Assembly (NCBI GenBank): GCA_959598745.1
Contig: CAUGFN010000001.1
Location: forward strand, 3,713 to 67,712
DNA length: 64,000 nt
DNA from: an uncultured Eubacteriales bacterium
GTDB lineage: Bacteria > Bacillota > Clostridia > TANB77 > UBA1234
Reading direction: 5' to 3'
In this document: one piece after another, positions 2,606 to 60,161 of the stretch
Numbering within the stretch: position 1 is the stretch's first letter
Layout of the letters: each line of letters starts with the position of its first letter
Translations under genes and position numbers: made by a program
The notes under the pieces: generated by a model
Database searches by the model: none
What the model saw: the letters and a program-made list of their open reading frames with translations, nothing else
Told to the model about the DNA's origin: nothing

Positions 2606-2634
2606 TTGACTGCTTTTTGAAAATGTGTTATAAT
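2606..2634 (+). promoter_or_regulatory. Consensus sigma-A promoter: TTGACT - 17 nt - TATAAT
   Basis: TTGACT at 2606-2611 and TATAAT at 2629-2634 with a 17-nt spacer. Sits upstream of the GC-rich small ORF, which has AGGAGG 8 nt before its ATG. Confidence 0.55.
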
Positions 2635-2705
2635 ATAAACACGCACATACTTAATAAAAGCTAGAGGTTTATTCTTCTAGTAAGAATTTTTAGGAGGGCA
2701 TAGTT

Positions 2706-2933
2706 ATGTGTAATCCATATGAGGTCAATCGTTTTAAAGGTGCAAGAAGTCGGAAGTTTGTGGTAAGCGGTTTGCCGTTCAAGTATCCCGACATCGTCGA
2801 CCTTATCGAGAAGGCCCGATGTGAGTGTATCGAAGAGGGGAACACCAGTAAACGCGAGGAGCTGTACAAGTTCTTTTGCATTGATGGTGACTTTCCAAAG
2901 GCGGAGTTCGAAAGGCTTTGGCCGCAAGGCTAG
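2706..2933 (+). CDS. Small GC-rich ORFan (75 aa) with perfect RBS; may instead, or also, be a structured sRNA
   Basis: AGGAGG-N8-ATG, own consensus promoter, intrinsic terminator directly after the TAG stop. About 50% GC with G/C-rich third codon positions in a ~30% GC genome. No family recognised. Confidence 0.4.
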   Translation: MCNPYEVNRFKGARSRKFVVSGLPFKYPDIVDLIEKARCECIEEGNTSKREELYKFFCIDGDFPKAEFERLWPQG

Positions 2934-2958
2934 GCTTATTAGATACGCCGGATGCACC

Positions 2959-2989
2959 TTCCCCCATTTATATGGGGGTTCTTTTTTTA
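2959..2989 (+). terminator. Rho-independent terminator (CCCCCAT...ATGGGGG followed by T-run)
   Basis: Perfect GC-rich stem followed by TTCTTTTTTT immediately after the small-ORF stop codon. Confidence 0.75.
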
Positions 2990-3012
2990 TGATAAAATAA
3001 ATTTATAATAAT

Positions 3013-3040: not shown

Positions 3041-3056
3041 AAATGATAGAAGTTGA

Positions 3057-3935
3057 TTAAGCACAAAAAATATTCAGTTTATGCATAATCTCATTTTCTT
3101 TGTCAGATAAATCTACTTTTTCAAATGAATGATATTTTTCTTCAAAAAAATCATCCAAAAGAATACAAAAACTACAAAATTCGCCATTTCCCATTTTTTC
3201 ATCGAAATCATCGATGATATTGTCGAATGAGAAAGAAATTATGCTAGTCCAAAACAGATTGAAGTACGCCATTCCATCGCTGTCAAAAGTGACGGAGTCA
3301 ATTTTGTTTGTGTCCAGAATACTTTTTCCATAATATGTTTCAAGTTTATAAATTATTGATCTCTCAAAATTGTCGCTAGAAAAGATTGTATCAAACTGCT
3401 TTGTTTCATCAGTATACTCAGAAATTTTGCCAACTATAAAGAAAGCCAAGTAGTCAGCAAGCATTTCTTCTAATGATGAGCCATACGTTAAATCGTTCCC
3501 TACAAAGCGTGTTACAGCAGAATAATTTGTGCTATCATCATGTGCTTTGCCTGAGAGAGAAAAAGCGTCGTATGGATTCAAAAAGAGAAAGTGTGCAAAT
3601 TCGTGAGCAATTACATATGCTATGTACTTTGTTGAATCATTAGGATTTATAAATAGTTTAATCTCAATAGCGTTTGAACAAGCATCGTTTGTGCAAGAGC
3701 CAATAGACCTCGAAAATGCTATTGGAGAGATAGAGACTTTAAGCTCGGATAATTTGCTCTGAAAAACGAAAGCATTTTCAAGGGAGTTGATGTACTCAAG
3801 AATCACTTTATTTACAATATCTTTCGCAAACTTCACATTTTCTTTTTGGACTTCAAAGTTTTTAAACAAGGTATTAACCTTCCTTTCATTTTTTATTAAA
3901 TAATATTCCGAGATAGTATTATACCAAAAAGTCAA
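3057..3935 (-). CDS. Hypothetical protein with HExxH zinc-metallopeptidase motif (HEFAH), 292 aa
   Basis: ORF track; the motif VIAHEFAHFLF is seen in the translation. Possibly ImmA/IrrE-like, but not confidently assigned. Confidence 0.45.
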   Translation of the reverse strand: MTFWYNTISEYYLIKNERKVNTLFKNFEVQKENVKFAKDIVNKVILEYINSLENAFVFQSKLSELKVSISPIAFSRSIGSCTNDACSNAIEIKLFINPNDSTKYIAYVIAHEFAHFLFLNPYDAFSLSGKAHDDSTNYSAVTRFVGNDLTYGSSLEEMLADYLAFFIVGKISEYTDETKQFDTIFSSDNFERSIIYKLETYYGKSILDTNKIDSVTFDSDGMAYFNLFWTSIISFSFDNIIDDFDEKMGNGEFCSFCILLDDFFEEKYHSFEKVDLSDKENEIMHKLNIFCA

Positions 3936-4088
3936 GCAGAAGTCAATTATGTAAACGAAAAACTTTTAAAAATTAGTTTACTAAATTTTTTGACTTTTAC
4001 CATTATTTGTGATATAATGTAAACGTGCCGTAAGGAAAGGAAAGATTTTCTTACAATAACATAATACGGAAGTTAGGGAGTGATACTG

Positions 4089-4598
4089 ATGTTTAAAGTA
4101 GGAGACAAGATAGTATATCCAATGCATGGTGCAGGAACAATTGAATCTATAGAAGAGCGTGAAATACTAGGAGAAAAACAAAAATATTACATAATGAAGA
4201 TGCCTGTTGGAGACATAAAAGTTATGGTACCAACGAAAAATGCTGAATTAATCGGCGTAAGAGATGTAATCGGTGGAGACGTGGCAGAAAGTGTATTAGA
4301 CGTTCTTAGTGCTATGCCAACGGATATGTCTTCTAATTGGAACAAAAGATATAGAGACAATCAGGACAAGATGAAGAGTGGCGATATATGTGAAGTTGCA
4401 GATGTTGTCAGAAACTTAACTTTCAGACAAAAAGACAAAGGGCTTGCTACTGGCGAGAAAAAGATGCTATCAAATGCAAAACAAATACTTATAAGCGAGC
4501 TAGTTTTGGCTGAAGCTATGACAAAAGAACAAGTTGAAGCCTTGATTGATGAGAAAATAGAAGAAGCGTACAATTCTTCTAAAGACGTGTTAGTTTAA
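4089..4598 (+). CDS. carD: CarD/CdnL family RNA-polymerase-binding transcription factor
   Basis: N-terminal MFKVGDKIVYPMHGAGTIE... is a typical CarD_CdnL_TRCF domain. AGGGAG RBS before the ATG at 4089; consensus promoter TTGACT-17-TGnTATAAT at 3990-4018. Confidence 0.8.
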   Translation: MFKVGDKIVYPMHGAGTIESIEEREILGEKQKYYIMKMPVGDIKVMVPTKNAELIGVRDVIGGDVAESVLDVLSAMPTDMSSNWNKRYRDNQDKMKSGDICEVADVVRNLTFRQKDKGLATGEKKMLSNAKQILISELVLAEAMTKEQVEALIDEKIEEAYNSSKDVLV

Positions 4599-4906
4599 GA
4601 GCGGATTTTTTAAGAATGTAACCTCAAGTTTATATAATTTGAGGTTACATTTTTTTAATTAATTTAAGAGTAACCCCCAGTTATACGGGATAACTATTTT
4701 ATGTATAAATAAGCTTTTTTAAAATAATTTTCATGTTTGGTTCTTTTTTAGCAACTAACCATATTATTACACCTGAGATTATAAACTTTCTGCTTGTTAA
4801 TTGTAATTGATATGTTTGTATAAAATGTATTCGCTATATTTAATCTTGTAATTTTTTTTATAAAATATATAATATATCTTATATACTAATATAAGGAGAG
4901 GATTAC

Positions 4907-5413
4907 ATGTCAGAGATAGTTTATGATGATAATGGTAAAATATTGGAAGGAACTTTGATAAAATATTATGAAGATGGCAAGATATTGTCTGAGACACCAT
5001 ATAAAAATGGAATGATTAACGGAACAGTTGTTGAATATTATTACAGTGGAGTTGTAAGTAGTAAGAGCGAATATGTAGATGATGTACTAAATGGAACAAC
5101 ATATGTATATTATAATTCTGGCGTTGTTTCGGAAGAAATACCGTATAGAAATGGAAGAATTAATGGTATTAAAAAGAGATTTTTTGAAAGCGGAGCAATT
5201 GCGGAAGAAGCTAGTTATTCAAGGGATATTTTGGATGGCGAGGTAAAAACATATGATTTAAACGGAAATGTAATAGATACAAAATATTTTAGAAAAGGAG
5301 AAACAATAGAAAAAGAGGATGTTGGAAAATTGAGAGCACAACTAGAAAAAGAAAAGGAAGAAAAGACAAAGATAGAATATTTAAATGATGAAGAGATGAA
5401 AAGATTGCTATAA
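4907..5413 (+). CDS. MORN-repeat / YwqK-like repeat protein, 168 aa
   Basis: Repeated Y..G......Y.NG.ING motifs are visible in the translation. Confidence 0.5.
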   Translation: MSEIVYDDNGKILEGTLIKYYEDGKILSETPYKNGMINGTVVEYYYSGVVSSKSEYVDDVLNGTTYVYYNSGVVSEEIPYRNGRINGIKKRFFESGAIAEEASYSRDILDGEVKTYDLNGNVIDTKYFRKGETIEKEDVGKLRAQLEKEKEEKTKIEYLNDEEMKRLL

Positions 5414-8469: not shown

Positions 8470-8487
8470 AAATAAATATATACATAT

Positions 8488-14443: not shown

Positions 14444-15196
14444 ATGAAAAAAATAATTAAATTGGTAATAGCAATTATAGTTGCACTTGCAATAATTAGT
14501 GGGATAATGATTTTAGTAGATTGTAGCTCTATAAAAAGTGAAAAAGAGCCTATATTTGCAAAGATGTCAGCAGCCTTAAATGACGGTGGTACTGTCATAT
14601 ATACAGGTTTTGGTTATAAGATAATAGATTTTCATATGCTAAATGGATATGATGAAACAAAAGTTGGTACTTTGTTTACAAAACCAGAAGATTTTAGTGA
14701 GGAATACAAAAAATATGATGTAAATCTAATACCAAAAGATGATGATAAAAACCAAAATAATGGTGATAATAAAATAAACAGTGGAGATACTGAAAAAGAA
14801 AGCGGAGACAAAAATCAAGTAAGTGGCGATACAACTATAAGTAGCGGAGAACATGAAGTTAATAGTGGAGATAACGCTACAGTAAGTGGAGAGAAAAATA
14901 ACAGCATTGAACAACCAACTCAAAGTGGCGATTTAGAGAAATCAGGTGATAAAAAGGAAGTTGAGACGTTCTTTATAGGAAGCATTATTGGAATAAAAGG
15001 AGATATTATGCTTGTTACACCTTTAGAGGATCAAGAAATACTTAAATCTTCAGATATAATTAGTTTTTCAATAAAAAATGAAAACTCAAAAGATTATATA
15101 ATTGGACAAAAGGTAAAAGTAACATATATTGGAGATGTAAAAGAAACTTATCCTGCTGGAGTAGATGCTATCAGTGTTGACATAGTAAATAATTAA
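14444..15196 (+). CDS. Membrane-anchored/secreted protein with SGD/SGE low-complexity repeats
   Basis: N-terminal hydrophobic segment. Repeated NSGD/VSGD/SSGE/VSGE units in the middle of the protein. Confidence 0.4.
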   Translation: MKKIIKLVIAIIVALAIISGIMILVDCSSIKSEKEPIFAKMSAALNDGGTVIYTGFGYKIIDFHMLNGYDETKVGTLFTKPEDFSEEYKKYDVNLIPKDDDKNQNNGDNKINSGDTEKESGDKNQVSGDTTISSGEHEVNSGDNATVSGEKNNSIEQPTQSGDLEKSGDKKEVETFFIGSIIGIKGDIMLVTPLEDQEILKSSDIISFSIKNENSKDYIIGQKVKVTYIGDVKETYPAGVDAISVDIVNN

Positions 15197-15267
15197 AATA
15201 AATAGAATATTTTTATATAAAAAAGCCCATATTATTTTTAAAGCATAAATTAAGGAGGTAAAATAAT

Positions 15268-15777
15268 ATGAGCGAGCATCCTATTGAGGGACTTATGAAT
15301 ACTGCTATGAACAACTTAAGAGATATGATAGATGTAAATACTATTATAGGAGATTCTATTGAAACTGCAAACGGTACTGTTATAATACCGATATCAAAAG
15401 TCTCATTTGGTTTTGCGGCAGGTGGCAGTGAATTTAATATGAGTACATTAGAAGAGACAAAACGAAGTGGTTCAGAAGAGGAAACCAAGCATGCACTTCC
15501 TTTTGGTGGAGGTAGTGGAGCTGGTGTGCATATTGAACCAATTGGTTTCTTAGTGATAACAGAAGGCTCAACAAAAATGATACCAGTTGACCATTGCAAT
15601 GCAATTGATAAATTATTGGATTATGTGCCTGACGTTATAGATAAAATAACACAATTGTTTGATAGAGATAGAACATATACGTATGAGTTTTATGAAGATG
15701 AAAATGGTAACACTCATGAAGAATGTTCATGCGGTTGTGGAGAAGATGTTGAAGAGAATGAAAACGAAAATGAATAG
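15268..15777 (+). CDS. ytfJ: GerW/YtfJ family sporulation protein with acidic Cys-rich C-terminal tail
   Basis: MSEHPIEGLMNTAMNNLRDMIDVNTIIGD... resembles YtfJ/GerW. The tail CSCGCGEDVEENENENE is unusual. Confidence 0.7.
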   Translation: MSEHPIEGLMNTAMNNLRDMIDVNTIIGDSIETANGTVIIPISKVSFGFAAGGSEFNMSTLEETKRSGSEEETKHALPFGGGSGAGVHIEPIGFLVITEGSTKMIPVDHCNAIDKLLDYVPDVIDKITQLFDRDRTYTYEFYEDENGNTHEECSCGCGEDVEENENENE

Positions 15778-15928
15778 CAATATATTTTAGAATAAAAATA
15801 ACCATTTACAAAAACTGTTCTTAGAATTGAGCAGAATGTAAATGGTTGTTTTTATATGACTTTATTTTGATTTTTAAATAAAAAGCCTTCAGCCATTTAC
15901 GTAGCTGAAGGTAAAATTAAAATATGTT

Positions 15929-16372
15929 TTATTTCTTTTGAAGAACAGCAACTATTGCAACAACAGCAACAACAATTACTATAGCAATTACTGCACCAAC
16001 TGTGCTAGTTTTTTGTGTAGAAGGTGTTGTTGTGTTATCATCTTTTGATGTAGTATTATCATCTGTTGTTGTAGGTGTTTTTGTATCTTCTGGAGTTTTT
16101 TCTTCACCAGAAACTTCTCCTGATACTTCGCCAGAAACTTCGCCTGAAGTTTCTCCAGAAGTCTTGTTAGATATTTCTCCTGAAACCTCACCAGAAGTTT
16201 CTCCTGAAACTAATTCTTCGCCAGATTTTTCAGCTGTATCTATAGTTTCTCCACTCTCTGTAGTTATTTGAGCAGGTGAAATTAAAAGCGTACTTCCATC
16301 TGTTTCTGCAAAAACTAATGATAAAGAAAAGATCATGACTAAAGATACTAATAAAGCTATTTTCTTTGCCAT
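15929..16372 (-). CDS. Small secreted repeat protein (signal peptide, TSGE/VSGE repeats, C-terminal TM anchor)
   Basis: ORF track translation: signal peptide, (T/V)SGE(V/T) repeats, Thr-rich stretch, C-terminal hydrophobic anchor. Hairpin terminator on the minus strand at about 15890-15925. Confidence 0.5.
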   Translation of the reverse strand: MAKKIALLVSLVMIFSLSLVFAETDGSTLLISPAQITTESGETIDTAEKSGEELVSGETSGEVSGEISNKTSGETSGEVSGEVSGEVSGEEKTPEDTKTPTTTDDNTTSKDDNTTTPSTQKTSTVGAVIAIVIVVAVVAIVAVLQKK

Positions 16373-16548
16373 CTTAAAATCATCCTCCTTATAAAATTTG
16401 ATAATTATATTGATTAATCACCTAGGACATTATACAATAATAATGTCTTAATGTCTAGTGAAATAGAAAAAAATGGGATACTTAATCGAAAATAAAAATG
16501 TTAGATATTAGGTTTTACAATAGTATTAGGATTTAAGAGGAGAAAAGA

Positions 16549-17187
16549 ATGAGATTAAAAAAAGTAAAGGATGCAAAAGAAAGAGTCGAAGCTTCTGAAT
16601 ATTACGTGAGCACTCCAAGCGAATACAAAGGAAAATGGAATGAATTTTTTAAAAACAACAATCCTATTCATATAGAAATTGGTATGGGTAAAGGAAACTT
16701 TGTTATTGGTATGGCAAAAGCACATAAAGATATAAATTATATTGGAATAGAAATGTATGATAGTGTTATGGTTAAGGCAGTAGAAAAATTAAAACAAGAA
16801 GAAAAGCCTTTAAAAAATTTAAAACTTGTGCTAATTGATGCTATGAAGATTGATGAAATTTTCGAAAACGAAATCTCACGTATATATCTCAATTTTTCGG
16901 ATCCTTGGCCAAAGGCAAAACACGAAAAAAGAAGATTAACAAGCAAGATTTTTTTAGAAAAATATGATAAAATATTTAAAGGACAAAAACAAATATTTCA
17001 AAAAACAGATAATAACGATTTGTTTGATTTTTCTATGGTATCACTTGTTGAAAATGGCTATGAATTAAGAAATGTGACAAGAGATTTGCACTCTGAAAAT
17101 GTTAGTGATAATATAATGACGGAATATGAGGAAAAGTTTTCAAATGCTGGAATAAAAATAAATAAATTGGAAGCATACAAAGACTAA
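16549..17187 (+). CDS. trmB: tRNA (guanine46-N7)-methyltransferase
   Basis: IEIGMGKGNF...FSDPWPKAKHEKRRL motifs. Confidence 0.9.
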   Translation: MRLKKVKDAKERVEASEYYVSTPSEYKGKWNEFFKNNNPIHIEIGMGKGNFVIGMAKAHKDINYIGIEMYDSVMVKAVEKLKQEEKPLKNLKLVLIDAMKIDEIFENEISRIYLNFSDPWPKAKHEKRRLTSKIFLEKYDKIFKGQKQIFQKTDNNDLFDFSMVSLVENGYELRNVTRDLHSENVSDNIMTEYEEKFSNAGIKINKLEAYKD

Positions 17188-17208
17188 AGATAAAAGTGGA
17201 GGTAATTA

Positions 17209-18393
17209 ATGAAAAAAAACGGATTGATTTTTTTGTTTATTATAATTTTAGCACTTTTAATAGGACTAATAGCATTTAGCTCTAGAAATAATGGAAATAT
17301 TATACAAAGTCCAAATGATAATATTATTGATTTGACTAAAGAGAATAAAACAAAAGTTATGTGGAATGGTAGTAATTTGCTAATGTATGATGATTATATA
17401 TATTATGTCGATAACGAAGTTGGATATAACGGCGAAAGTGAAAACAAACTATGTAGAATTAAGTTAACAGGTGAAAATAAAGTGGAAGTTATGTATAAGA
17501 CTTCGCAATACGATATTGAAAATAGATTATACATATTTAATAATAATTTATTTTTCACGGTTTTAGGTCAAACCTTGTATATGAATCTTGACGATACTAG
17601 TTACATTAAAAAATTTTGTGTTGGTAAATTGTATAGCATTCAGGATGGAAATATAATATATCTATATCAAAATAAACTATGCAAAGCAGAATATTACAGA
17701 GAAACATTAATTGTTAGAAATCCGATATCACTAGTAAGTGGAAATTCGAGTTTTATGATTGAAGATGATGTAAATTTGTACTTTTCTTCTTCAAACAGTG
17801 ATGGTAGTATTTCTATTTTTAAAGTGAATAAAGAAAAACAATACGCGAATGTGCTAGACAGAATTTATATGAAGAATGAGAGTGAACAGCAGGTAATTGA
17901 TAGTGCTGTTACAGATAATGGATTATATGTTTTAATAGAGAGAAAAATGCCGGCTGGCGGTTCAAAATATATTCTTGAAAAAGTAAAAAAAGACGGTTCA
18001 GAGACGCAATCAATAGATTTGACAGGAGATGTTTATGAAATAAAATATGCAGACAACTCAAATATATATTTTATTTGTTATGGTGAAACTGAATTGAGAA
18101 AGTATAGTGAAAAATCTGAGAAAATTGAATCTGTGAAAGAAAATGACATGCCAATCATATACTCTTTACAAAAAGAAGAAACATCATTAAAACTATATAA
18201 GAATAATTCCTTAATTTGTGATATTTGTGAAGTGTATAGAGAAAATGCTCAAAATATTAATATAAGAGAAAAGGATAATTATATCTATATCGATTTTAAT
18301 TTAATTGACGGAATGTCAAGCGTTGGAGAATATATGATTTATAGGTTAAAGAAAGACGGAACAGAGTTAGAAAGATTGAACCAAAATATTTAA
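17209..18393 (+). CDS. N-terminally anchored hypothetical protein (possibly DUF5050-like beta-propeller)
   Basis: TM helix followed by a repetitive beta-rich domain. No confident family. Confidence 0.35.
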   Translation: MKKNGLIFLFIIILALLIGLIAFSSRNNGNIIQSPNDNIIDLTKENKTKVMWNGSNLLMYDDYIYYVDNEVGYNGESENKLCRIKLTGENKVEVMYKTSQYDIENRLYIFNNNLFFTVLGQTLYMNLDDTSYIKKFCVGKLYSIQDGNIIYLYQNKLCKAEYYRETLIVRNPISLVSGNSSFMIEDDVNLYFSSSNSDGSISIFKVNKEKQYANVLDRIYMKNESEQQVIDSAVTDNGLYVLIERKMPAGGSKYILEKVKKDGSETQSIDLTGDVYEIKYADNSNIYFICYGETELRKYSEKSEKIESVKENDMPIIYSLQKEETSLKLYKNNSLICDICEVYRENAQNINIREKDNYIYIDFNLIDGMSSVGEYMIYRLKKDGTELERLNQNI

Positions 18394-19701: not shown

Positions 19702-19784
19702 TAAGGGAAACCTCAAATGGTGCGTCAAAGCACTGTTTGAGGTTTTACTTGTATGAAAAATTCAAAGTCACAAGGAAGAAATCT

Positions 19785-20327
19785 ATGAAGAAAATAACTA
19801 AGAATAATAAATTGATTATTTGGAAAAATATTCTTATGAAAATCTTGTGTATAATTATTTTTATTGTTAGTAGTATTTTGATTTTAAAAATTAAAATCCA
19901 AGTGAATATAGAGAGCCGTGGAATGAATGCATTTTTAAAACTAAAAGTAGGACCAGTAGAAATAAAGAAAAATGGCAGAGTGGTTGGCAAAAGAAAAAAA
20001 GGTAATAATTTAAAAGGAGAGAAGAAAAAGAAAATTAGCGCAAATGAGATAAAACAAATTATGAAAAGCGTTGAATTAACATATTTTGATGCAAATCTAA
20101 AAGTTGGCCTACTTTTTTTATTTCCGACTGTATTTTCGATTCCCATACTATCTACTCTTTTAGAATGTTTAAAAATGTTGCCTTTTAAAAAGATTGGTCA
20201 TTATAAGTACGTGATTTTGCAGGAGTATGATAGATTAATATTTGACACCAATATTAATATTGTATTAAAGATGAGGGTATTTGATGTGTTGAAATTGGCA
20301 ATAAAGCACCAAAATAAGCTAGCATGA
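19785..20327 (+). CDS. Hypothetical membrane protein (180 aa)
   Basis: ATG at 19785 with AAGGAAG RBS, downstream of the previous gene's terminator. The ORF-track start at 19737 would run through that terminator. Confidence 0.4.
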   Translation: MKKITKNNKLIIWKNILMKILCIIIFIVSSILILKIKIQVNIESRGMNAFLKLKVGPVEIKKNGRVVGKRKKGNNLKGEKKKKISANEIKQIMKSVELTYFDANLKVGLLFLFPTVFSIPILSTLLECLKMLPFKKIGHYKYVILQEYDRLIFDTNINIVLKMRVFDVLKLAIKHQNKLA

Positions 20328-20405: not shown

Positions 20406-21078
20406 ATGAGTTTGGTTGAGGCAAAAGATGTACATTTTAGTTATCCTGCGAAAAAAGATGCTTTGAATGGAGTAAGTTTTAAAATAGAAGAAGGAGATTT
20501 TGTTTGTGTATTTGGTGAGAACGGCTCTGGTAAAAGTACACTTATGAAGTGCATTTTGGGTTTATACAAGCCACAGTCTGGAGAAATAATTGTTAACGAT
20601 AGAATCCGGATATTTACCACAAAAAACTGAAATACAAAGTAATTTTCCAGCATCGATTGAAGAGGTTGTTCTAAGCGGTACAATTGTTAATAATATAAAT
20701 AAAATTTGGTACAGCAAAAGAGATATAGCTATAGCAAACAAGGTTATGAAAGAGTTGGATTTGTTTGATATAAAAAATAAGTGTTTTAGAGATTTATCTG
20801 GTGGCCAGCAGCAAAGAGTTTTAATAGCTAGAGCGATATGTGCAACAGAAAAAGTTATCATTCTAGATGAACCGACAAATGGCCTTGATCCTGCTATTTC
20901 TACTCAAATATATGAAATCTTAGAAAGACTAAATAAAAAAAGAGGCTTGACAGTTATAATGGTTTCACATGATATTTCAAGGGCTATAAAATATTGTAGT
21001 AGGGTTATAGAAATTAAAGATGGAAGAGTTACATATATAGGCGATGCAAAAAGCTACAAAGGTGGAGGTGTTGCTTAG
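20406..21078 (+). pseudogene. Metal (Zn/Mn-type) ABC transporter ATP-binding protein, interrupted by a frameshift near 20610-20625
   Basis: The Walker A half (GENGSGKST, ORF 20406..20630) and the Q-loop/signature/Walker B half (LSGGQQQRV, ILDEPT, ORF 20590..21078) are in different frames and overlap. Read across the frames, the sequence fuses (SGEIIVNDRI/GYLPQK). Confidence 0.6.
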
Positions 21079-25909: not shown

Positions 25910-26314
25910 TTACCAAGGCTTTTTATCGCAATGGTCTTTTGGGCAAATGTCTTTTTGACAAGTGTCGCAGTGGTCTTTTTCACAATGATCTTTGTCGCAG
26001 TGGTCCTTGTCATGCTTAAATTCACAATCAACAAATAAATCATCAACTTTAGTGTCAGCAGTAAAGTCGATAGGAATCTCAACTTTCATCTTTTGAATAA
26101 TAGTGTACTTACAGCAACCGTTCTTTTGCATTTCATCACAACAAATATCATGCTTTCTTGGAACAACGATTGGTGTGCCACAGCATTCTGTTTTAATGTT
26201 TCCAACTTTTGCGCAAGGTGTTGTTGTTACAGGTAAACATATCGTTAGGAATTTTTCAATTATTGTTTTAAAATCGCAAAAATCAGGACGGTCAAATTTT
26301 TCATTTTCAAACAT
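25910..26314 (-). CDS. Cys/His-rich small protein with tandem KDHC repeats (possible spore coat/exosporium or metal-binding protein)
   Basis: Translation contains HDKDHCDKDHCEKDHCDTCQKDICPKDHCDKK plus CC pairs. Confidence 0.5.
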   Translation of the reverse strand: MFENEKFDRPDFCDFKTIIEKFLTICLPVTTTPCAKVGNIKTECCGTPIVVPRKHDICCDEMQKNGCCKYTIIQKMKVEIPIDFTADTKVDDLFVDCEFKHDKDHCDKDHCEKDHCDTCQKDICPKDHCDKKPW

Positions 26315-27359: not shown

Positions 27360-28510
27360 GTGATTTTTATGCCAGTTTTAAGATATGGTTCGAGTGGTGC
27401 TTATGTTGAATGGTTACAAAGCACCTTAAAAAAGTTGGAATACTATGCAGGAAATGTGGATGGAATATATGGAAATCAAACAATGGAGGCAGTAAAGAAC
27501 TTTCAAAAAGAATTTGGGCTACAACTGGATGGAATCGTTGGCATAGCGACTTGGAATGCACTAATGCCGTATTTAAATGGTAAACTTTTTGATATAGTTC
27601 CTACAGATATAATATATCCATATAGCATTATGATGAGAAATATAAATGCTTTAGTTACAAAGTATCCTTTTTTAGAATATAGCTATTATGGCAGAAGTAT
27701 AATGGGAAAGAATTTGCCAGTAATAAAAATAGGAAACGGAAGCAAAGAAGTTTTTTATAGTGCATCAATCCATGCAAACGAATGGATTAATTCGGTTGTG
27801 TTTATGAAATTTATTGAGGATTTTGCAAAGGCATATGAAAGTGAAGGAAATATATTTGGCTATGATGCAAAAAAGATATTTAATGAAACAACAATTTATA
27901 TAGCACCTATGGCAAATCCAGATGGAGTGGATTTAGTGCTTTGGCAATTGCCAGTGCGTTCGTCAGCATATATGAATGCCAGAAATATAGCTAGTGGATA
28001 TCCCAATATTCCTTTTCCAAACGGTTGGAAAGCTAATATTGTGCGGAGTAGATTTGAATTTGCAATTTCCCGCCGAATGGCAACTTGCACGTGAAAACAA
28101 GTTTAAACAAGGTTTTGTAAGACCAGCACCAAGAGATTTTGTTGGTTACCGGACCTTTAACTGAGCCGGAATCATTAGCTTTGTACAATTATACACTTGC
28201 ACATGATTTCAAATTGATTTTATCATATCATACACAAGGAGAAATAATATATTGGAGATATTTGGAATTCGAGCCGGTAGGTGCAGAAGAATTGGGAAAA
28301 GAATTTGCCAGAATTAGTACATACACATTAGATGATGAGAAAGAAACAAATAGTTATGCAGGATATAGAGATTGGTACATATCAAAATACAATAGACCTG
28401 GATACACGTTCGAAACAGGCATGGGACAAAATCCGCTACCAATTTCTCAGTTCGAAAAGATATACAAAGACAATGTAGGAGTTTTAGTGACGGCGGCTGT
28501 AAAAACATAG
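27360..28510 (+). pseudogene. Gamma-D-glutamyl-L-diamino acid endopeptidase (M14 peptidase with PG-binding domain), two frameshifts
   Basis: PG_binding_1 domain followed by M14 (SIHANEW). The conserved stretch VDLNLQFPAEWQLARENKFKQGFVRPAPRDFVGY is read only in a third frame between ORFs 27360..28094 and 28139..28510. Frames therefore run 0 -> 1 -> 2, with shifts near 28045 and 28140. Confidence 0.6.
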
Positions 28511-28549: not shown

Positions 28550-28629
28550 CTATGTCGAAGTTTATCGCTATAGGAGGAAAGCCCATAACTATGGGCGAAA
28601 AAACATGGACTTTGAAGGAGGCATAATTT

Positions 28630-44669: not shown

Positions 44670-44895
44670 TAGAGCCATTTGTTAAAATTAAATAATCAAA
44701 AATTAGTAGTAAAATTGATATTTGTCCACCCAAAATCAATCGATGTGGTTGTTACTAGATAAATAAAAATGTGGACAAAATCAATTGAAATTAAAGGATG
44801 TCAGCGAAATAAAATTTGTTGACATCCTTTTTAACAAACATATAGGAAGTTAATACTTATAATATAAAATATATTTAAATTTAGGAGAAACAGGC

Positions 44896-45921
44896 ATGGA
44901 TAATAAATTGATTGGAAATGAGAAAAATATTTTATTTTATAGCGATGAAGAAGGGAATACAAAGGTAGAAGTATTATTAGAAAACGAAGATGTATGGCTA
45001 AATACGGATGCATTAGCATCACTTTTTAATATTGATAGAAGTGGAATTGTAAGACATATTAACAATATTTATAAAGATGAAGAATTAAACGAAAATGTAA
45101 CTTGTGCAAAAATTGCACAAGTTCAAATAGAAGGAACTCGTGAAGTTAAAAGAATTTATCCATACTACAATTTGGATATGATTATTTCAATAGGTTTTAG
45201 GGTTAACTCTAAGAAAGCGATTAAATTTAGAACTTGGGCAAATAAAATAATTAAAGATTATATGGTTCAAGGTTTCGCCTTGAATGACGAAAGATTTTTA
45301 AAAGCCCAGAAATTTGATCAAGAGTATTTTAAAAGATTACTTGAAAGAATTAAATTAATTCGTACAAGTGAGAGAATGTTTTATCAAAAAATTACTGATA
45401 TATTTGCTGAATGTTCTGTTGATTATGATAAAAATAGTGATACTGCAATAACTTTTTATAAAACTATTCAAAACAAATTTCATTATGCAATTACAGGAAA
45501 AACTGCTGCTGAAATAGTTTATAGCAGAGTAGATTCTAAAAAAGAACATATGGGCCTTACTGCCTGGGAAAACTCACCTAATGGAAAAATTTTAAAATCT
45601 GATGTAATTATTGCTAAGAATTATTTAAATGAAAAAGAAATTAAAAATTTGAATAATTTAGTAAACTTATTTTTGGATATTGCCGAAAATAATGCAGAAA
45701 GAAATATAACTATGTATATGGAGGATTGGAAAAATGAAGTAGAAAATGCTTTGAAAGTTTTTCATTATGAAGTTATAGAAGGAAAAGGAAAGATTTCACA
45801 TAAACAAGCAGTCGAAAAAGCGGAAAATGAATATGAAAAATATAAAGTTATACAGGATAAAAATTATGTATCAGATTTTGATAGACTGTTAAGCGAAACA
45901 AAGCAAATTGAAAATAAATAA
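44896..45921 (+). CDS. RhuM-family (virulence-associated) protein
   Basis: Recalled family signature across the length of the 341-aa product. Inserted between secA and prfB. Confidence 0.7.
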   Translation: MDNKLIGNEKNILFYSDEEGNTKVEVLLENEDVWLNTDALASLFNIDRSGIVRHINNIYKDEELNENVTCAKIAQVQIEGTREVKRIYPYYNLDMIISIGFRVNSKKAIKFRTWANKIIKDYMVQGFALNDERFLKAQKFDQEYFKRLLERIKLIRTSERMFYQKITDIFAECSVDYDKNSDTAITFYKTIQNKFHYAITGKTAAEIVYSRVDSKKEHMGLTAWENSPNGKILKSDVIIAKNYLNEKEIKNLNNLVNLFLDIAENNAERNITMYMEDWKNEVENALKVFHYEVIEGKGKISHKQAVEKAENEYEKYKVIQDKNYVSDFDRLLSETKQIENK

Positions 45922-46039
45922 ATTGTACATGTATAAAAATCGAAAAAATATTGACTTTTTATGTCGACATGATATAATATCCAACGTAAACGATAAGTTT
46001 ATAAAATATAAAAAAACTTTTTTATAGGAGGACTTCACA

Positions 46040-46399
46040 ATGATTGAAGTTACTTTTTTACGTTTGGACTGGCTTAAAGGCAGACACCTTTGGAAGAATG
46101 AAATCGATAACGTTGCTATTCCAGAAAACGCAGTTGAGACAAAAGACGGAAATGGATACTCTTTACCAGCAGAATTGAATTTAACTGTTAAGGAAACAAA
46201 TGGTTCTGCTGTGTACACATGGGACATATATGAGTTCGTAAAAGAGGTAAATGGCTGGGAACGGTTATCAACACCACGGTTTACTGCTTTACAAGAGGCT
46301 TTCAGACGGCAAAGAACCTTAAAGTTAGATGAGGATATTCCAACTTGGTCTTATTATTCACTGGTAGGGCTAAAAGAAATAGTCGAGAGTTGCAAGTAG
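46040..46399 (+). CDS. GC-richer ORFan (119 aa)
   Basis: Own promoter TTGACT-16-TGaTATAAT (about 45953-45983), GGAGGA RBS, hairpin terminator at 46405-46450. No family recognised. Confidence 0.4.
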   Translation: MIEVTFLRLDWLKGRHLWKNEIDNVAIPENAVETKDGNGYSLPAELNLTVKETNGSAVYTWDIYEFVKEVNGWERLSTPRFTALQEAFRRQRTLKLDEDIPTWSYYSLVGLKEIVESCK

Positions 46400-46544
46400 T
46401 CAAACCCTAATATAAAAAGCATGATATAGAGAGATTTCTCTACATCATGCTTTTTATGTTTTGATAGATGAATAATATATGAGATTGCAACATTTGGTAA
46501 TTTGTAATATAATAAATAAACAATATTTAGAAGGATGTGATTTA

Positions 46545-47649
46545 ATGCTAGAGTTAGAAGAAGCAAATCTAACACTTAAAGAATATGAGAAAAAGCTAAA
46601 TGAATTAAGGGATTCTCTTTGACATCGATGGCAAGAAAAATAAAATCGTCGAACTAGAAGAAAAAACAAAAGACAACGATTTTTGGCAAGATACGGAAAA
46701 ATCAACTAAGGTATTACAAGAAATAAAAACATTAAAAAACAGCGTAACGAAATTTGAAGATATATATAATATGCTTTCTGATACAATGGTTCTTATCGAA
46801 CTTGGCAATGAAGCAAATGACGAGAGTGTTGTTCCAGAAGTAAAAGGCAATGTGAAGAAATTATCTAAAAAAATAGATAATCTAGAAGTTGAAAGTTTAC
46901 TTTCTGGTAAACATGATAAGGATAATGCAATAATTACAATTCATCCAGGTGCAGGAGGAACTGAATCACAAGATTGGGCAGAAATGCTTTATAGAATGTA
47001 TTCTATGTGGGCTGAAAAAAACGATTACAAGTTAGAAGAACTTGATTATTTAGAAGGTGATGGTGCAGGTTTAAAAAGTGTTACTTTTAGTGTTTCAGGT
47101 GAAAATAGCTATGGTTATTTAAAAGGCGAAAGTGGCGTACATAGATTAGTAAGAATTTCTCCTTTTGATTCTGCAGGTAGAAGACATACATCTTTTGCAT
47201 CAGTCGAGGTAATACCTGAGATTTCAGATGATGTAGAAGTTATAATAAATCCTGAGGATTTAAGAGTAGATACTTATCGTTCAAGTGGGGCTGGTGGACA
47301 GCACGTAAATAAAACAGAATCTGCAATAAGAATAACTCATATACCAACAAATATAGTTGTTTCTTGTCAGACTCAACGTTCACAAATACAAAACAGAGAA
47401 ACAGCAATGAAGATGTTAAAATCTAAACTTTTAGAATTAAAAGAGAGAGAAAATAAAGAAAAGATAGAAGATTTAAAGGGTGTTCAAAGAGAAATTGCTT
47501 GGGGAAGCCAAATTCGTTCATACGTATTTTGCCCATATACAATGGTAAAAGATCATAGAACAAATTATGAAACAGGAAATGTAGAAGCTGTTATGAATGG
47601 TGAAATAAATGAATTTATAAATGCTTATTTGAAATCTCTAATAAAGTAA
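46545..47649 (+). CDS. prfB: Peptide chain release factor 2 with programmed +1 ribosomal frameshift
   Basis: ORF0 MLELEEANLTLKEYEKKLNELRDSL ends at the classic CTT TGA C slippery site (46617-46623), preceded by an SD-like AGGGA. The downstream frame continues as RF2 with GGQHVNKTESAIRITHIPT. Confidence 0.9.
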
Positions 47650-53630: not shown

Positions 53631-53688
53631 TATAAAAAACAAGTGGTCAAATAGGCCACTTGTTTTTTATATAGAATTGGGCAATGGC

Positions 53689-54060
53689 TCAAGTGCTATA
53701 AGGGTACAATCTGTTTAAAAGCAAGTCGATTTCTCTAACAAGCTTTTCTTTGTCATAAGTTGAAAAGTCAGATTCTAAGATAGACTGTACCATATTTAAA
53801 TACTTTTTGCTGGCTTCCTCATAGAGATTTTCACGGCTTTTAAGATAATGTGCAAATCTTTTGGTAAAGGTAACATCAACATCGTTACGACCGAAAAGCA
53901 TGTTCGTCAATCGATCTTTGTTGCTTTGAAAAGGCTCATAAATTTTGTATTGCCAATTAAATGGGTAATCCAAGAGGCAAGATTGTAAATCGATGACATC
54001 AATTGTGCCGTCTTCATTTACGTTAGGCATATCAATAGTATATGATAAGAAAGTTGCCAT
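53689..54060 (-). CDS. Hypothetical protein (123 aa)
   Basis: ORF only. Confidence 0.35.
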   Translation of the reverse strand: MATFLSYTIDMPNVNEDGTIDVIDLQSCLLDYPFNWQYKIYEPFQSNKDRLTNMLFGRNDVDVTFTKRFAHYLKSRENLYEEASKKYLNMVQSILESDFSTYDKEKLVREIDLLLNRLYPYST

Positions 54061-54269
54061 GGTATAAGCCCTCCTAAGAAAAATAAAATTACAACTACAT
54101 ATTATAATATTTATTTTACAAGTGCAATAGTAAATGCGAAAAGTTTAGATTTTATGATTTAAAAGTATTTGTATGCAAAAGTATTCTTTGAGAAAATAAT
54201 ATATAAAAAGGTCCACTGCAACAGAGGACCTTTTTATTACTCAAAGTGTCATTTTACAAAATAACAAAA

Positions 54270-54650
54270 TTATTTTGCAAAATCGTATGGATGGCGCTGG
54301 TGAATTTCTTCGTTGATGATTGCGAGGAGTGTGGATTTGCAATTAAGATTGCTATCCTTAATTGCCTTGATGGTTCCGAGAAGTTCGGCATACTCTTCAG
54401 TCTGGCAAATTGCTTCGCGGTCGCTCAAGTAGTCAAGTAACTTCTTGTCTATAGTGTACGAAACTCTATCGTGTCCATAAACAAGCAATTCTAGAGCTCT
54501 TACATTCTCCTTCGGAGAACAAGTGAAGTTGTATCTCCATTCATGGGCGTCTTCAGACCAACAGGAATTTTCGTCAGCCACCCTCATTGTTGCATTTCTT
54601 CCATCCTTAACCATTACAATGGTTCGCTTTAAATTTGCCAACATAGACAA
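54270..54650 (-). CDS. GC-richer ORFan (126 aa), minus strand
   Basis: AGGAGG-N8-ATG on the minus strand; promoter TTGATT-17-TATAAT; bidirectional terminator at about 54205-54235. Roughly 42% GC. Confidence 0.4.
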   Translation of the reverse strand: MSMLANLKRTIVMVKDGRNATMRVADENSCWSEDAHEWRYNFTCSPKENVRALELLVYGHDRVSYTIDKKLLDYLSDREAICQTEEYAELLGTIKAIKDSNLNCKSTLLAIINEEIHQRHPYDFAK

Positions 54651-54891
54651 ATCCTCCTATAAATTTATTTTGGAACTTTATTATATAATAGAAATCTAAA
54701 TAAATCAAGTGATTTCCAAAAATTTCATATAAAGTTTACAAAACGTAATTAGTGTGGGGTAAATATGCCTTAAAACTATAATTTATTTGCTAAATTTTTA
54801 TAAATTATGTAATTTCTGTGCCTTCGGACAAATTTATTGCAAAATTAGACCTATTTCGATATAATTATAATTGATTTAGGAGTGATACATT

Positions 54892-57800: not shown

Positions 57801-59199
57801 AGGCGCAATAAGAATCAGAATAAGATCGCTTTTAGCAAGTATGAATAAGCATGAAACTTGTATAGTGCCAAAAGAAACTCAAGTTGGCGAATATGAAATA
57901 GAAAAAAAGATATTTGATAAAGAAATGAAAAAAGATTATACAATATTGATACCGCAAATGGCACCAATACATTTCGAGTTATTGCAAGCAGTACTTAGAA
58001 AATATGGATATAATGTTAAACTGCTTCGTGAGTGTACAGCACATACGGTAGAAGTAGGACTAAAATATGTTAATAACGATGCATGCTATCCATCAATATT
58101 AACGACAGGACAAATGATAGAAGCACTTGAATCTGGTGAGTATGATGTGGAAAAAACAGCGCTTATGATGTCACAAACTGGTGGAGGTTGTAGAGCAACA
58201 AATTATATAGCTTTCATTAGGAAAGCTTTAAAAGATGCTGGATTTACAAATGTACCTGTAATATCATTTAACTTTAGTGGTATGGAGAAAATGCCAGGTT
58301 TTAAACTTACACCAAAGATGATAGACAAACTATTAAAAGCAGTTGTGTATGGCGATTTATTGCAAAAACTATTGCTAAAAAATAGAGCTTATGAAGTACA
58401 CAAAGGTGATACAGAAGAAACATACGAAAAATGGATGGCAAAATGCAAAGATATCCTAGAAAACGGAAGTATAAAAGATTTCAGAAAAAGTATTTATGAA
58501 ATGGTTGAAGATTTTGAAAAGATAGAGGTTAATTTGTATCAAAGAAAGCCGAAAGTGGGAATAGTTGGAGAGATTTTAATAAAATATCATCCATTTGGAA
58601 ATAACAACATAATAGAAAAGCTAGAAGCAGAAGGTGCAGAAGTTACAATGCCAGACTTCATGGGATTTGTAAAATATGCGGCAACACCGAGCATAACATG
58701 GCATAAACTAATGAACTTGGACAAAAACAAATCAGAAATATTCAAATTTGCACTTAAAATAATAAACTCATTTGAAAAAGACTCTCGTAGAGCACTTCAA
58801 ATGTCAAATAGAGATTATTTATTACCAATAGATATATGGAAGTTATCAGAAAAAGTCGACAAGATATTGTCGCTTGGAAATCAAACCGGAGAAGGCTGGT
58901 TCTTAACAGCAGAGATGATAGAGTATATAGAACATGGAATTGACAACATAGTTTGCGTTCAGCCATTTGCGTGTCTTCCCAACCATGTAGTGGGTAAAGG
59001 AATGATAAAGAAAATAAGAAGCAAATATCCAGAGGCTAACATAGTGCCAATTGACTATGATCCAGGTGCAAGTGAAGCAAATCAAACTAATAGAATAAAG
59101 CTGATGATGACAGTTGCAAAGGATAATATGCCAAAAACAGAAAATATAAAGAAAGATTTTTATAGTGAAAAACAAACTATTTTAGAAACAAAAAAATAA
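54892..59199 (+). CDS. CoA-substrate-specific enzyme activase fusion (two BadF/BadG/BcrA/BcrD-type ATPase domains plus a 2-hydroxyacyl-CoA dehydratase-like domain), 1435 aa
   Basis: Two acetate/sugar-kinase-type ATPase N-termini (IGLDVGSTTVK..., LGIDAGSTTSK...) followed by a large C-terminal domain. Matches the large activase-related proteins known from Clostridia. Confidence 0.7.
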   Translation: MKRVLHIGLDVGSTTVKVIVMDESLKIIYSSYERHFSDTKNTVCTCLENLIEKFPGYDFNIALTGSGAMFVSKLLDLPFIQEVISCKRAVEKYIPRTDVVIELGGEDAKIIYFDKSIEQRMNGTCAGGTGAFLDQMALLLDTDTQGLNELAKKHNTIYPIASRCGVFAKSDIQPLLNEGAAKEDIAASIFQAVVNQTISGLACGRPIKGNVAFLGGPLNYLPELRKRFIETLKLSDDEIIIPEDAHLFVAKGAALDSVNYNAINAEKLRAKIQMLKYAHDDTTVPLNPLFTVDAEYEEFKKRHEADKIKRKPLNNYKGDAFLGIDAGSTTSKLVLISSDGKLLYESYKSNEGSPLQSVIKMMEKLYDVLPKQVTIRYAGVTGYGEKLIQSALNIELNEIETIAHYSAAKKFMPNVTSIVDIGGQDMKYISIKDGAIDNIMLNEACSSGCGSFIETFAKSLNLSIQKFVDEAIKARKPVNLGSRCTVFMNSKIKQAQKEGYTVGDISAGLSYSVIKNAIQKVMKVRDVATLGDNIVVQGGTFYNDAVLRAFEIIVGKNVVRPDIAGLMGAYGVAILAKEKFDALNDKNYVSKVFKKDELETLTVSITHTRCKGCENNCFLTINEFSNGKKFISGNRCEKGAGRDKANLNLPNMYAYKYKRIFDYEPLSEEKAYRGTIGIPRVLNMYEDYPFWFTFLTKLGFRVLISEKSNRKTYEKGMESMPSESVCYPAKLSHGHVMSLIEQGIKTIFYPCVPYSRKEFKDSDNHYNCPIVISYPEVLKNNVEELNEIKFINSFLPFDTKKLVKTILELPEFSEYRFSKSELTEAAEEAEKEYQKCKKDILEKGKETLKYINDNNLKGIVLAGRPYHIDPEINHGIDKMITSLGLCVLTEDSVAGLVEPKRPLRVVDQWTYHARLYAAADFVGKHENIELVQLNSFGCGVDAVTTDQVEEILKSFGKMYTLIKIDEVNNLGAIRIRIRSLLASMNKHETCIVPKETQVGEYEIEKKIFDKEMKKDYTILIPQMAPIHFELLQAVLRKYGYNVKLLRECTAHTVEVGLKYVNNDACYPSILTTGQMIEALESGEYDVEKTALMMSQTGGGCRATNYIAFIRKALKDAGFTNVPVISFNFSGMEKMPGFKLTPKMIDKLLKAVVYGDLLQKLLLKNRAYEVHKGDTEETYEKWMAKCKDILENGSIKDFRKSIYEMVEDFEKIEVNLYQRKPKVGIVGEILIKYHPFGNNNIIEKLEAEGAEVTMPDFMGFVKYAATPSITWHKLMNLDKNKSEIFKFALKIINSFEKDSRRALQMSNRDYLLPIDIWKLSEKVDKILSLGNQTGEGWFLTAEMIEYIEHGIDNIVCVQPFACLPNHVVGKGMIKKIRSKYPEANIVPIDYDPGASEANQTNRIKLMMTVAKDNMPKTENIKKDFYSEKQTILETKK

Positions 59200-59369
59200 G
59201 ATATTTCACAGACAAAGTTATAGGTTTAAAATAAATATGCCATAGAAAAAGTGAAATTGACATAAATAAAGATAAATGGTATAATGAATCTGTGCTTATA
59301 TCTTTATACACTCCTTGGCAGCATGTATGGACATAAGTAATATTTGATAATTAAAAGGAGAAAAACGTT

Positions 59370-60038
59370 ATGCAACAATGGATGACCAATTACACAGAGG
59401 TGCAGTTAGAATTCTTGGACTACAAGCGAGAAATGGAAAGCTTACCTTGGCAGGAAAGAGAGCACGATTATAGGCTTTCAAGGGAACTGTACGTAAGTAT
59501 AAAACACCAACTTCGTGACAAATTCCCGAGAACAGCAATGTACACCTCTAACGAGCGACTTTTGGATTTTTCCGAAAAGCTTGCGAGCATGGTCGAGGAC
59601 TATCAAGTGGCTGTGATGTCTTATGAGGCATTGGCACAGGTTGTGGCTGAACAGAGTTACCGGATTCGTCCGATTATAGGAATAATCCGGAAAGACGAAC
59701 TCTTTGCACTTGTGGATAAGAGAGCAAGGATAATCGGTGTTCACGTACCGAAAAGCAAGAAACTGAAAGCTTTGGAACAGAGAGTAGAGAAAGCTTTAGT
59801 GCAGCTTGATGGCTTCATTACGGGGAAAGGTGGAACACCTAACGCGTTCGTCCGTGTGGCTCTCGAAAACTTTATTTTCGAACAGAAGCATGATTCCAAT
59901 GTGCCGGAAATCAAGATTGTTGCCGTAAAAAAGCCGATTAAAGGAGGCAAAGAGGTTGACATCCGTGGTTTTGGAGGACTTCAAATGAGCTTCAAGGTAT
60001 TTGAAGGAAGAGAGGTAGTATATTACCATATCATTTGA
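59370..60038 (+). CDS. GC-rich ORFan (222 aa)
   Basis: Promoter TTGACA-17-TATAAT (59266-59294); AAAGGAG RBS; terminator GCAGTGAGA...TCTCACTGC followed by TTTTT (60040-60075). Roughly 45% GC. Confidence 0.4.
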   Translation: MQQWMTNYTEVQLEFLDYKREMESLPWQEREHDYRLSRELYVSIKHQLRDKFPRTAMYTSNERLLDFSEKLASMVEDYQVAVMSYEALAQVVAEQSYRIRPIIGIIRKDELFALVDKRARIIGVHVPKSKKLKALEQRVEKALVQLDGFITGKGGTPNAFVRVALENFIFEQKHDSNVPEIKIVAVKKPIKGGKEVDIRGFGGLQMSFKVFEGREVVYYHII

Positions 60039-60161
60039 TGTCGCGAAAGCAGTGAGATTTTTCTCACTGCTTTTTGAATATGTCACCATTGAAAAAAATA
60101 TAAAAGTATGATATAAGTATATCTATGTAAACAAGAATATAAGAAAAGAGGATTAGATATT

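Follow-up and report, generated by a model that had tools for sequence, protein, structure and literature searches.

The window analysed here is a stretch of 64,000 nucleotides (64 kb) from an uncultured Eubacteriales bacterium (GenBank assembly GCA_959598745.1, contig CAUGFN010000001.1, positions 3,713 to 67,712). It has a guanine-plus-cytosine (GC) content of 31% and carries the housekeeping genes valS, carD, rny, spoVS, recA, hrcA-grpE-dnaK-dnaJ, secA, prfB, polC, hpf and glnS. Among these genes lie six short, GC-rich units, c1, c2, c3, n123, c4 and c5, which we call cassettes and which hold seven open reading frames (ORFs), c2 containing the gene pair c2a and c2b (Table 1). The original prediction, made from the sequence alone, had announced six compositionally foreign cassettes and listed five of them; six do exist, and the sixth outlier is n123. 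In a scan of species-representative genomes, the BcrAD/DUF2229 protein of the window, with 1435 amino acids (aa), was 98% identical to that of "Clostridiales bacterium UBA4698", and the next relatives, at 72-76%, were uncultured gut Clostridia such as Clostridium sp. CAG:245 and Candidatus Merdicola. L numbers denote sampled contigs or loci of related assemblies, which came from different studies and assemblers (ENA, Logan, NCBI); L009 is UBA4698, and L097 and L106 are parts of one scaffold.

Table 1. Positions in the window, signals and third-position GC content (GC3) of the six cassettes and of the gene accompanying c1; z is relative to the 53 background genes.
Feature	Span	Strand	Promoter	Coding sequence (protein)	Terminator	GC3	z
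c1	2606-2990	+	2606-2634	2706-2933 (75 aa)	2961-2990	0.579	7.8
c1 companion gene (HEFAH, i.e. HExxH, motif; metalloprotease-like)	3057-3869	-		3057-3869 (270 aa)		0.31	
c2	28521-29995	+	28521-28549		about 29955-29995		
c2a		+		28630-29037 (135 aa)		0.360	3.2
c2b		+		29015-29908 (297 aa)		0.443	4.9
c3	45951-46458	+	45951-45978	46040-46399 (119 aa)	46413-46457	0.342	2.8
n123	53636-54140	-	54140-54113 (weak, promoter-like)	53689-54060 (123 aa)	53636-53672 (by folding)	0.355	3.1
c4	54203-54708	-	54708-54680	54270-54644 (124 aa)	54203-54238	0.440	4.9
c5	59257-60078	+	59257-59285 (12/12)	59370-60038 (222 aa)	60044-60078	0.462	5.3

The cassettes differ from their surroundings in composition and codon usage. 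The 53 neighbouring genes of the window, used as the background set, have a mean GC3 of 0.207 (standard deviation 0.048, maximum 0.306), and the seven ORFs reach 0.34-0.58 (z 2.8-7.8). Host-rare codons account for 6.7-16% of the codons in the cassettes, a 3-6-fold enrichment, whereas in the background genes they average 2.5% and never exceed 5.9%; the enriched codons (CGN, CTC/G, CCC/G, TCC/G, ACC and GCC) are nearly absent from host genes. This gene-by-gene recount bears out the earlier claim that the cassettes are outliers in composition and codon usage. The GC content of 40-50% given for them holds overall, with whole-gene values of 0.385-0.48, and is slightly generous for c2a and c3. The excess spans the entire coding sequences and ends at AT-rich, host-like promoters and untranslated regions (UTRs); a restriction of the GC-richness to recombined blocks was thus rejected. 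All alleles of the cassettes that we compared have a GC3 of 0.30-0.59, against 0.09-0.22 in core genes on the same contigs, and high GC3 is kept even in alleles and paralogs saturated at synonymous sites. The GC3 excess is a stable, gene-wide property of these coding sequences and not a sign of recent acquisition. GC3-outlier ORFs were several times rarer in 80 related species than in the window.

As judged from flanking promoters and terminators, each cassette appears to be an autonomous transcription unit, as had been proposed. Scans found a match of at least 10 of 12 positions to a sigma-A-like consensus at each unit, the site at n123 being weak and promoter-like. The near-perfect sigma-A promoter claimed for every unit is present at c1 and c2 (TTGACT-17-TATAAT), c3 (TTGACT-16-TATAAT) and c5 (TTGACA-17-TATAAT, 12/12), all four with an extended -10 element (upstream TG), but the c4 promoter is weaker (TTGATT-17-TATAAT, 10/12). 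Strong promoters are not special to the cassettes because only 4 of the 18 sites in the window that match at 11/12 or better belong to them. Every unit has an AGGAGG-type ribosome-binding site (RBS) 6-9 nt from the start codon, and scans and folding confirmed a hairpin terminator of its own for each: a stable stem followed by a U run, at -12 to -24 kcal/mol, with fold z-scores of -5 to -8 in five of the six units and -2.0 in c1. Three details of the earlier description had to be revised. The c2 terminator (-20.8 kcal/mol, z -7.2) lies further out than position 29930, at which the unit had been ended; the ATG of the upstream ORF assigned to c2 is lost in the L105 and L110 alleles, so this ORF is not conserved; and c4, taken to encode 126 aa, most likely starts at the ATG at 54644.

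The cassettes occupy fixed positions. The flanking genes are valS and carD for c1, a split M14-like peptidase gene and an SSB-like gene for c2, secA and prfB for c3, hpf and the BcrAD-like gene for the c4-n123 pair, and the BcrAD-like gene and glnS for c5. The same intergenic slots were filled in all related assemblies examined, apart from n123, which is absent from L009 (where c3 and c4 are kept), and a module swap at c1. The lineages sharing the slots include some that have diverged from the window to synonymous distances (dS) of 0.3-1.1 in core genes (L089, L104, L110 and L112). The gene order is valS, c1, the 270-aa gene and carD in L099-L104 (with the module swapped in L102); the split M14-like peptidase gene, c2a, c2b and the SSB-like gene in L105-L111; and polC, DUF1294, hpf, two minus-strand genes, the BcrAD-like gene, c5 and glnS in L089. 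n123 is a tandem paralog of c4 (25% identity, BLASTP E-value 5e-10), and this pair adjoins hpf also in the more distant L112; a tandem pair was found as well in L115, a 971-bp contig without flanking genes. The statement that the cassette products show no similarity to one another hence fails for c4 and n123, while the rest share only a generic promoter and RBS consensus. The cassettes are present together in the window and its closest assemblies, for example on a 288,662-bp contig of GCA_964308015.1. Scans around the BcrAD-like gene (80 species) and prfB (80 metagenome loci) recovered relatives without kept synteny.

The c1 slot holds alternative modules. Its strain-variable segment, 2407-2961, is replaced in L095 and L096 by about 1 kb that encodes a diverged homolog of 77 aa (MCNFRA..., GC3 0.55-0.59), and L097, L098 and L102 contain a pair of genes for 213 and 99 aa instead of c1 and the 270-aa gene (4694-5701 in L097). 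The 270-aa HExxH protein gave weak SprT-like and M78 matches, both below cutoff, and the 213-aa replacement protein a weak DUF3232 match. The c1 slot of L095 and L096 also holds about 450 bp of extra sequence (3923-4298 and 4031-4406, respectively) with two very hydrophobic minus-strand ORFs of 67 and 47 aa, which are possibly membrane peptides or toxins.

Allele divergence in these slots is in strong contrast to that of the adjoining genes: protein identity is about 50-84% for cassette alleles and 93-100% for flanking genes. Compared with L089, c5 is 67.6%, c4 51.6% and n123 72% identical, and the neighbours are 93-99% identical except for the small DUF1294 gene (85%). Compared with L009, the values are 70.6% for c3 and 50.9% for c4 against 98-99% for the neighbours; compared with L105-L111, they are 65-82% for c2a and 84% for c2b against 94-100%. 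In an unbiased sliding-identity scan, the only low-identity coding windows were c2, n123/c4 and c5. The borders of divergence are sharp; some fall within the coding sequence, others in the promoter or terminator, which are conserved. Between the c3 alleles of the window and L009, the promoter, the 5'UTR, the first codons, the last 33 codons and the terminator are nearly identical, whereas codons 9-86 have a nonsynonymous distance (dN) of 0.25 and a dS of 1.45; dS is 0.10 in the 3' block and 0.15-0.24 in the flanking genes, and the alignment of the two alleles contains a single in-frame 3-nt indel. The c4 allele matches L009 without a difference over about 110 nt of promoter and UTR and diverges from the start codon onwards; its coding sequence is about 64% identical, with a dN of 0.37 that exceeds even the dS of the flanking genes (0.04-0.34). 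Codons 1-75 of c2a have a dS of 0.048 to L105, but the remainder has a dN of 0.37 and a dS of 0.48; downstream of codon 75, dS stays at 0.48-0.79, and in the C-terminal domain of c2b a dS of 0.79 goes with a dN of only 0.01 (dN/dS about 0.013). For c5, dS to L089 is 2.2 against 0.6-1.1 in the flanks. In most of the diverged comparisons dN/dS is 0.08-0.27, being higher in c2a (0.24-0.69). dN and dS are both elevated, yet purifying selection stays strong in some domains. The original prediction had named conserved core homologs as a refutation, and the genes come halfway to that: their positions are kept in the lineage, but they do not behave like core genes and do not evolve slowly.

The reverse pattern was also found, clearly in c1 and more weakly in c5. 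The c1 protein is 100% identical in L104 (dS 0.023), although the flanks differ by a dS of 0.3-0.5, and L095 and L096, which are closer to the window than L104, carry the much more diverged c1 homolog. Likewise, the dS of c5 to L092 (0.0185, with dN/dS 0.88) is below that of the adjacent BcrAD-like gene and glnS (0.075-0.118). Each slot changes its alleles independently of the others. Where a high dS coincides with strong constraint, this favours old alleles over mere relaxation, and breakpoints inside a single transcript argue against transcription-linked mutagenesis. Taken together, the diverged blocks, the reverse pattern and the incongruence of c1 point to an exchange of alleles or modules by homologous recombination, independent of the clonal frame. 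A diversity-generating retroelement target was considered separately and rejected on the c3 allele substitutions, which are of all types, and on the lack of any copy of a cassette segment elsewhere in the 64 kb. The called genes of the related loci had no Pfam annotation to a reverse transcriptase family, much of the window (about 35-49 kb) lying outside the Pfam scans.

On balance, we lean towards the explanation that the six units have long resided, as accessory genes, in a species complex of UBA4698-like, AT-rich gut Clostridia to which they are restricted, and that homologous recombination exchanges their alleles within it. Each unit would be a self-contained transcription unit for one or two proteins in a fixed slot between housekeeping genes. 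Alleles would be swapped between lineages through the conserved flanks, and whole alternative modules would be swapped likewise in the valS-carD slot. Imported variants would be kept preferentially at these loci, which would suggest diversifying or frequency-dependent selection. With low confidence, the products might act in genetic conflict, for instance as immunity, phage-exclusion or regulatory factors.

Several points weigh against this explanation. The comparison data are mostly metagenome assemblies, the transcription units are predicted from sequence, and we infer recombination from pairwise mosaics in a handful of genomes. NG86 estimates are unreliable above a dS of 1, and the raised dS could partly reflect weaker codon selection or a faster mutation of G/C third positions under AT bias, estimated at about 1.5-fold. 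The persistent GC3 excess is left unexplained by an exchange of resident alleles. As to a role in conflict, the products have no above-threshold match to defence, toxin, immunity or regulator families, and the structural model of c4 (see below) found no fold match in PDB or BFVD.

The original prediction had preferred individually acquired, moron-like genes, which we read as recent, independent horizontal imports from a GC-richer donor, each expressed from its own promoter. Donors to a genome of 31% GC would usually be GC-richer, and the foreign-looking codon usage, the autonomy of the units and their orphan status would all fit. Nevertheless, we regard this explanation as improbable: strain-specific insertions would hardly fill the same slots in lineages as far apart as the core-gene distances above, with the c4/n123 pair beside hpf even in L112. 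Mobile context is missing too, as no phage, integrase or transposase gene adjoins any unit, cassette sequences are not repeated elsewhere in the 64 kb, and neither c5 nor c4 has homologs outside the lineage. A combined tblastn search with all six proteins found nothing in phage (50,697 records) or plasmid collections, and IMG/VR scans with c2b and c5 were likewise empty. Moreover, the promoters and UTRs are as AT-rich as those of the host, and synonymous-saturated paralogs and alleles keep their high GC3. Purely vertical, fast evolution under weak constraint without any exchange, with GC set by gene-specific selection such as that on mRNA stability, is the least unlikely of the alternatives, and still unlikely. 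The proteins are small and lineage-specific, their dN/dS is 3-10 times that of the neighbours (about 0.9 in c5 against L092), and species-specific orphan genes of gut bacteria have been described to arise by rapid divergence in conserved synteny (Vakirlis & Kupczok 2024, PMC11293555). This model does not readily produce sharp divergence blocks within single genes or operons (c3, c2a), a raised dS where dN/dS is as low as in the C-terminal domain of c2b, c1 and c5 sequences that are more similar than their flanks in some pairs, or c1 alleles that depart from genome relatedness. Other fast-evolving neighbours are not GC-rich. Of three comparison sets of background genes, two showed no correlation between dN and GC3 (rho 0.007 and 0.40, not significant), and the third gave a rho of 0.94 with six genes only, so that the idea of the cassettes as the tail of a trend from weak constraint to higher GC3 is mostly unsupported.

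The remaining alternatives carry much less weight. The six units could be dispersed parts of one cooperating accessory system, as had also been considered, since they share architecture and composition and occur together in the window and its closest assemblies. This is very unlikely given that the c1 module is replaced on the L097/L106 scaffold, which still carries c2, that n123 is missing from L009 despite c3 and c4, and that slot alleles change independently, without a common sequence or motif beyond the generic promoter and RBS. GC-rich islands in AT-rich genomes are also a classic sign of structured RNA; whole-transcript fold z-scores of -2.9 and -3.8 and long antisense ORFs could be taken to mean that the cassettes are non-coding RNA genes, or chance ORFs in GC-rich DNA. 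We consider this extremely improbable, because ORFs of the same length are kept across alleles of 50-70% identity with indels in frame and dN/dS below 1, all units have a strong and correctly spaced RBS, the c4 family yields a confident predicted protein model, and the fold scores stem largely from terminator and leader hairpins. Rfam searches (gathering thresholds, and E-values up to 1) found nothing in the coding parts, the sub-threshold matches overlapping only the terminator hairpins of c1 and c3; relics of ribosomal or other non-coding RNA were rejected on the same result. Finally, the compositional contrast alone could raise a suspicion of engineered inserts, the last of the earlier suggestions, or of assembly chimeras or contamination. 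Exact cassette proteins recur on 20-90 contigs of independent metagenome samples, which marks the sequence as natural, and identical or allelic copies stand in the same context in many independent assemblies from ENA, Logan and NCBI, forming a natural allelic series across dozens of independent metagenomes, so that the probability of an artefact is close to negligible.

The exchange of resident alleles, which we prefer, does not by itself account for composition. The GC3 excess either dates back to an old foreign origin or is kept by a locus-specific force. The synonymous-saturated cases are hard to reconcile with an old import that is still incompletely ameliorated. A more speculative proposal, to which we give a rather small probability, is that a locus-specific, GC-raising force holds synonymous GC at 2-3 times the genome equilibrium through full turnover, while frequency-dependent selection keeps the families diverse. 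Candidates for such a force are GC-biased gene conversion at recombination-prone loci and selection on the mRNA, for example to avoid AU-specific RNases or toxins. If this were true, the factors that set GC content within a bacterial genome could be studied in this lineage as an unusually clean natural experiment.

The cassette products are small, soluble and probably cytoplasmic proteins; they have neither a signal peptide nor a transmembrane segment and belong to no recognisable family. The observation of the original prediction that no protein family could be assigned is well supported. No unit scored above threshold in Pfam, NCBIfam, PHROGs or PADLOC. The best PHROG matches (E-values 4e-4 to 9e-4) were to families of unknown function or coiled-coil regions and had no Pfam or NCBIfam support, and PADLOC-DB 2.0 gave coiled-coil noise for c2b and an E-value of 0.004 for c1, without a significant match. 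PDB sequence searches with c2a, both ends of c2b, c3, c5 and the c4 profile returned nothing significant. Only three clusters among 5.8 billion proteins correspond to c5, at 98, 96 and 68% identity, and a profile of the c4/n123 family found 16 representatives among 1.84 billion proteins. An AlphaFold2 model of the c4 family was predicted with confidence (predicted local distance difference test score, pLDDT, 88; predicted template modelling score, pTM, 0.80), while that of c5, from a four-sequence alignment, was unusable (pLDDT 38). An assignment of the C terminus of c5 to the HU/IHF (DNABII) proteins was rejected: the sole signal was an E-value of 0.08 to single-chain IHF over residues 133-207, without a Pfam Bac_DNA_binding match, and the protein ends before the DNABII beta-arm could form. 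c2b has sub-threshold N-terminal matches to helix-turn-helix (HTH) domains (HTH_7), a coiled coil below cutoff and a conserved C-terminal domain.

With low confidence, the slots also seem to collect strain-specific defence and toxin-related genes. A low-GC gene of the RhuM family (44896-45921, 341 aa; Pfam E-value 1e-101, and 5e-135 to the PADLOC candidate defence family PDC-S05) lies in an insertion at 44670-45928 between secA and the c3 promoter, which is found in this strain only and is absent from L009. An Ntox35-domain polymorphic-toxin gene followed by a gene for about 138 aa stands just upstream of valS in some strains (L101 1-826; L104 1-832), separated from the c1 slot downstream by about 3.7 kb that include valS. 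The small hydrophobic ORFs in the c1 slot of L095 and L096 may be counted here as well. In L009, cytidylate-kinase fragments come after the BcrAD-like gene, together with ORFs that have sub-threshold Mom-like and Ham1-like matches and an HhH-GPD match (14474-17695); this possible cluster for DNA modification or defence takes the position occupied by c5 and glnS in the window. A role in conflict is the most economical guess because of the tandem duplication, the fast protein evolution, the allele turnover and the nearby conflict genes. Neither a toxin-domain gene next to a unit of the window nor an Imm-family match, the marks of immunity proteins against polymorphic toxins, was found. A type II toxin-antitoxin (TA) pair was considered for c2: the genes c2a and c2b overlap (29015-29037) and have no Pfam, NCBIfam or PADLOC toxin or antitoxin match, the sub-threshold signals given above being the only ones; c2b, with 297 aa and a coiled coil, is unlike typical toxins.

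Hypervariable loci with conserved flanks include the agr specificity region of Staphylococcus aureus, the comQXP pherotypes of Bacillus and the pneumococcal blp and com loci. These encode secreted peptide signals with membrane receptors, or pairs of bacteriocins and immunity proteins, and are not known to be compositional outliers. The cassettes resemble them in their fixed position, deeply diverged alleles, sharp borders in near-identical genomes and probable exchange by homologous recombination, and differ from them in encoding small soluble proteins and in being compositional outliers. With prophage morons they share the autonomous arrangement of promoter, gene and terminator and a composition unlike the surroundings, but they lie outside prophages between housekeeping flanks, with no phage genes nearby and no phage homologs. 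By analogy, they may be compared with orphan immunity or antitoxin genes and small genes of defence islands, which are likewise small, cytoplasmic, fast-evolving, tandem-duplicated (as c4/n123) and near strain-variable defence or toxin genes; unlike these, the cassettes lack a toxin partner, an Imm, TA or PADLOC match and a matching fold. The orphans of gut bacteria surveyed in PMC11293555 are similar in being short, restricted to a species or genus, without database homologs, with signs of purifying selection, and among conserved neighbours. In that survey, GC and GC3 of orphans closely track the host and virus-like orphans are AT-richer, whereas GC3 of the cassettes is 2-3 times that of the host and persists across saturated alleles and paralogs.

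Orphan genes of bacteria usually have the base composition of their genome or are AT-richer, and it is common to interpret them as recent imports; the genes described here appear to be old and are stably GC-richer. The features by which recent islands are recognised, namely variable presence, mobility genes and donor homologs, are not seen in the cassettes, apart from the lack of n123 in L009 and the module swap at c1. A compositionally foreign gene is therefore separable from a recently acquired one, which calls for caution in identifying islands by GC content only. In these 64 kb of housekeeping genes no other coding segments are hyper-diverged, and the cassettes add at least five new protein families, one of them with a confident predicted model that matches no known fold, from an abundant uncultured gut group. 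They also provide concrete loci for testing allele exchange under diversifying selection and the local maintenance of GC content.

Other features of the region were recorded in passing. Next to c3, prfB (46545-47649) contains the classical programmed +1 frameshift site CTT TGA C near 46610-46620, owing to which the ORF list shows only its downstream part (46771-47649). Beyond c5, directly after glnS, a lone 5S rRNA gene (61847-61963) is followed by tRNA-Asn (61970-62045; region 61812-62045) with a near-consensus promoter of its own, apart from any 16S or 23S gene in the window. In all strains examined, the M14 peptidase gene with a peptidoglycan-binding domain upstream of c2 (27360-28510) is split into ORFs of 244 and 123 aa and an ABC-transporter ATPase gene (20406-21078) into ORFs of 74 and 162 aa, which may be conserved frameshifts or pseudogenes. 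The minus-strand gene at 25910-26314 encodes an orphan protein of 134 aa that contains 16 cysteines. It occurs in many population variants (47 members in the 90% cluster), and its GC3 of 0.30 stands at the upper end of the background values. The gene at 19737-20327 evolves fast (75% protein identity in L110, dN 0.14), and its GC3 of 0.29 lies between background and cassettes. The AT-rich intergenic region between carD and a 168-aa gene (4500-4950) is 66-77% identical to L099 and L104, its surroundings being about 96% identical. A lipoprotein-like gene of 331-332 aa, not present in the window, stands between DUF1294 and hpf in L092 (2670-3665) and L112 (2253-3251). In two other genera, a conserved lineage-specific ORF pair lies just upstream of the BcrAD-like gene (L087 7913-9123; L085 8083-9458), encoding a secreted protein of 202-231 aa and one of 140-145 aa, with a GC3 raised to 0.27-0.35 against about 0.12.

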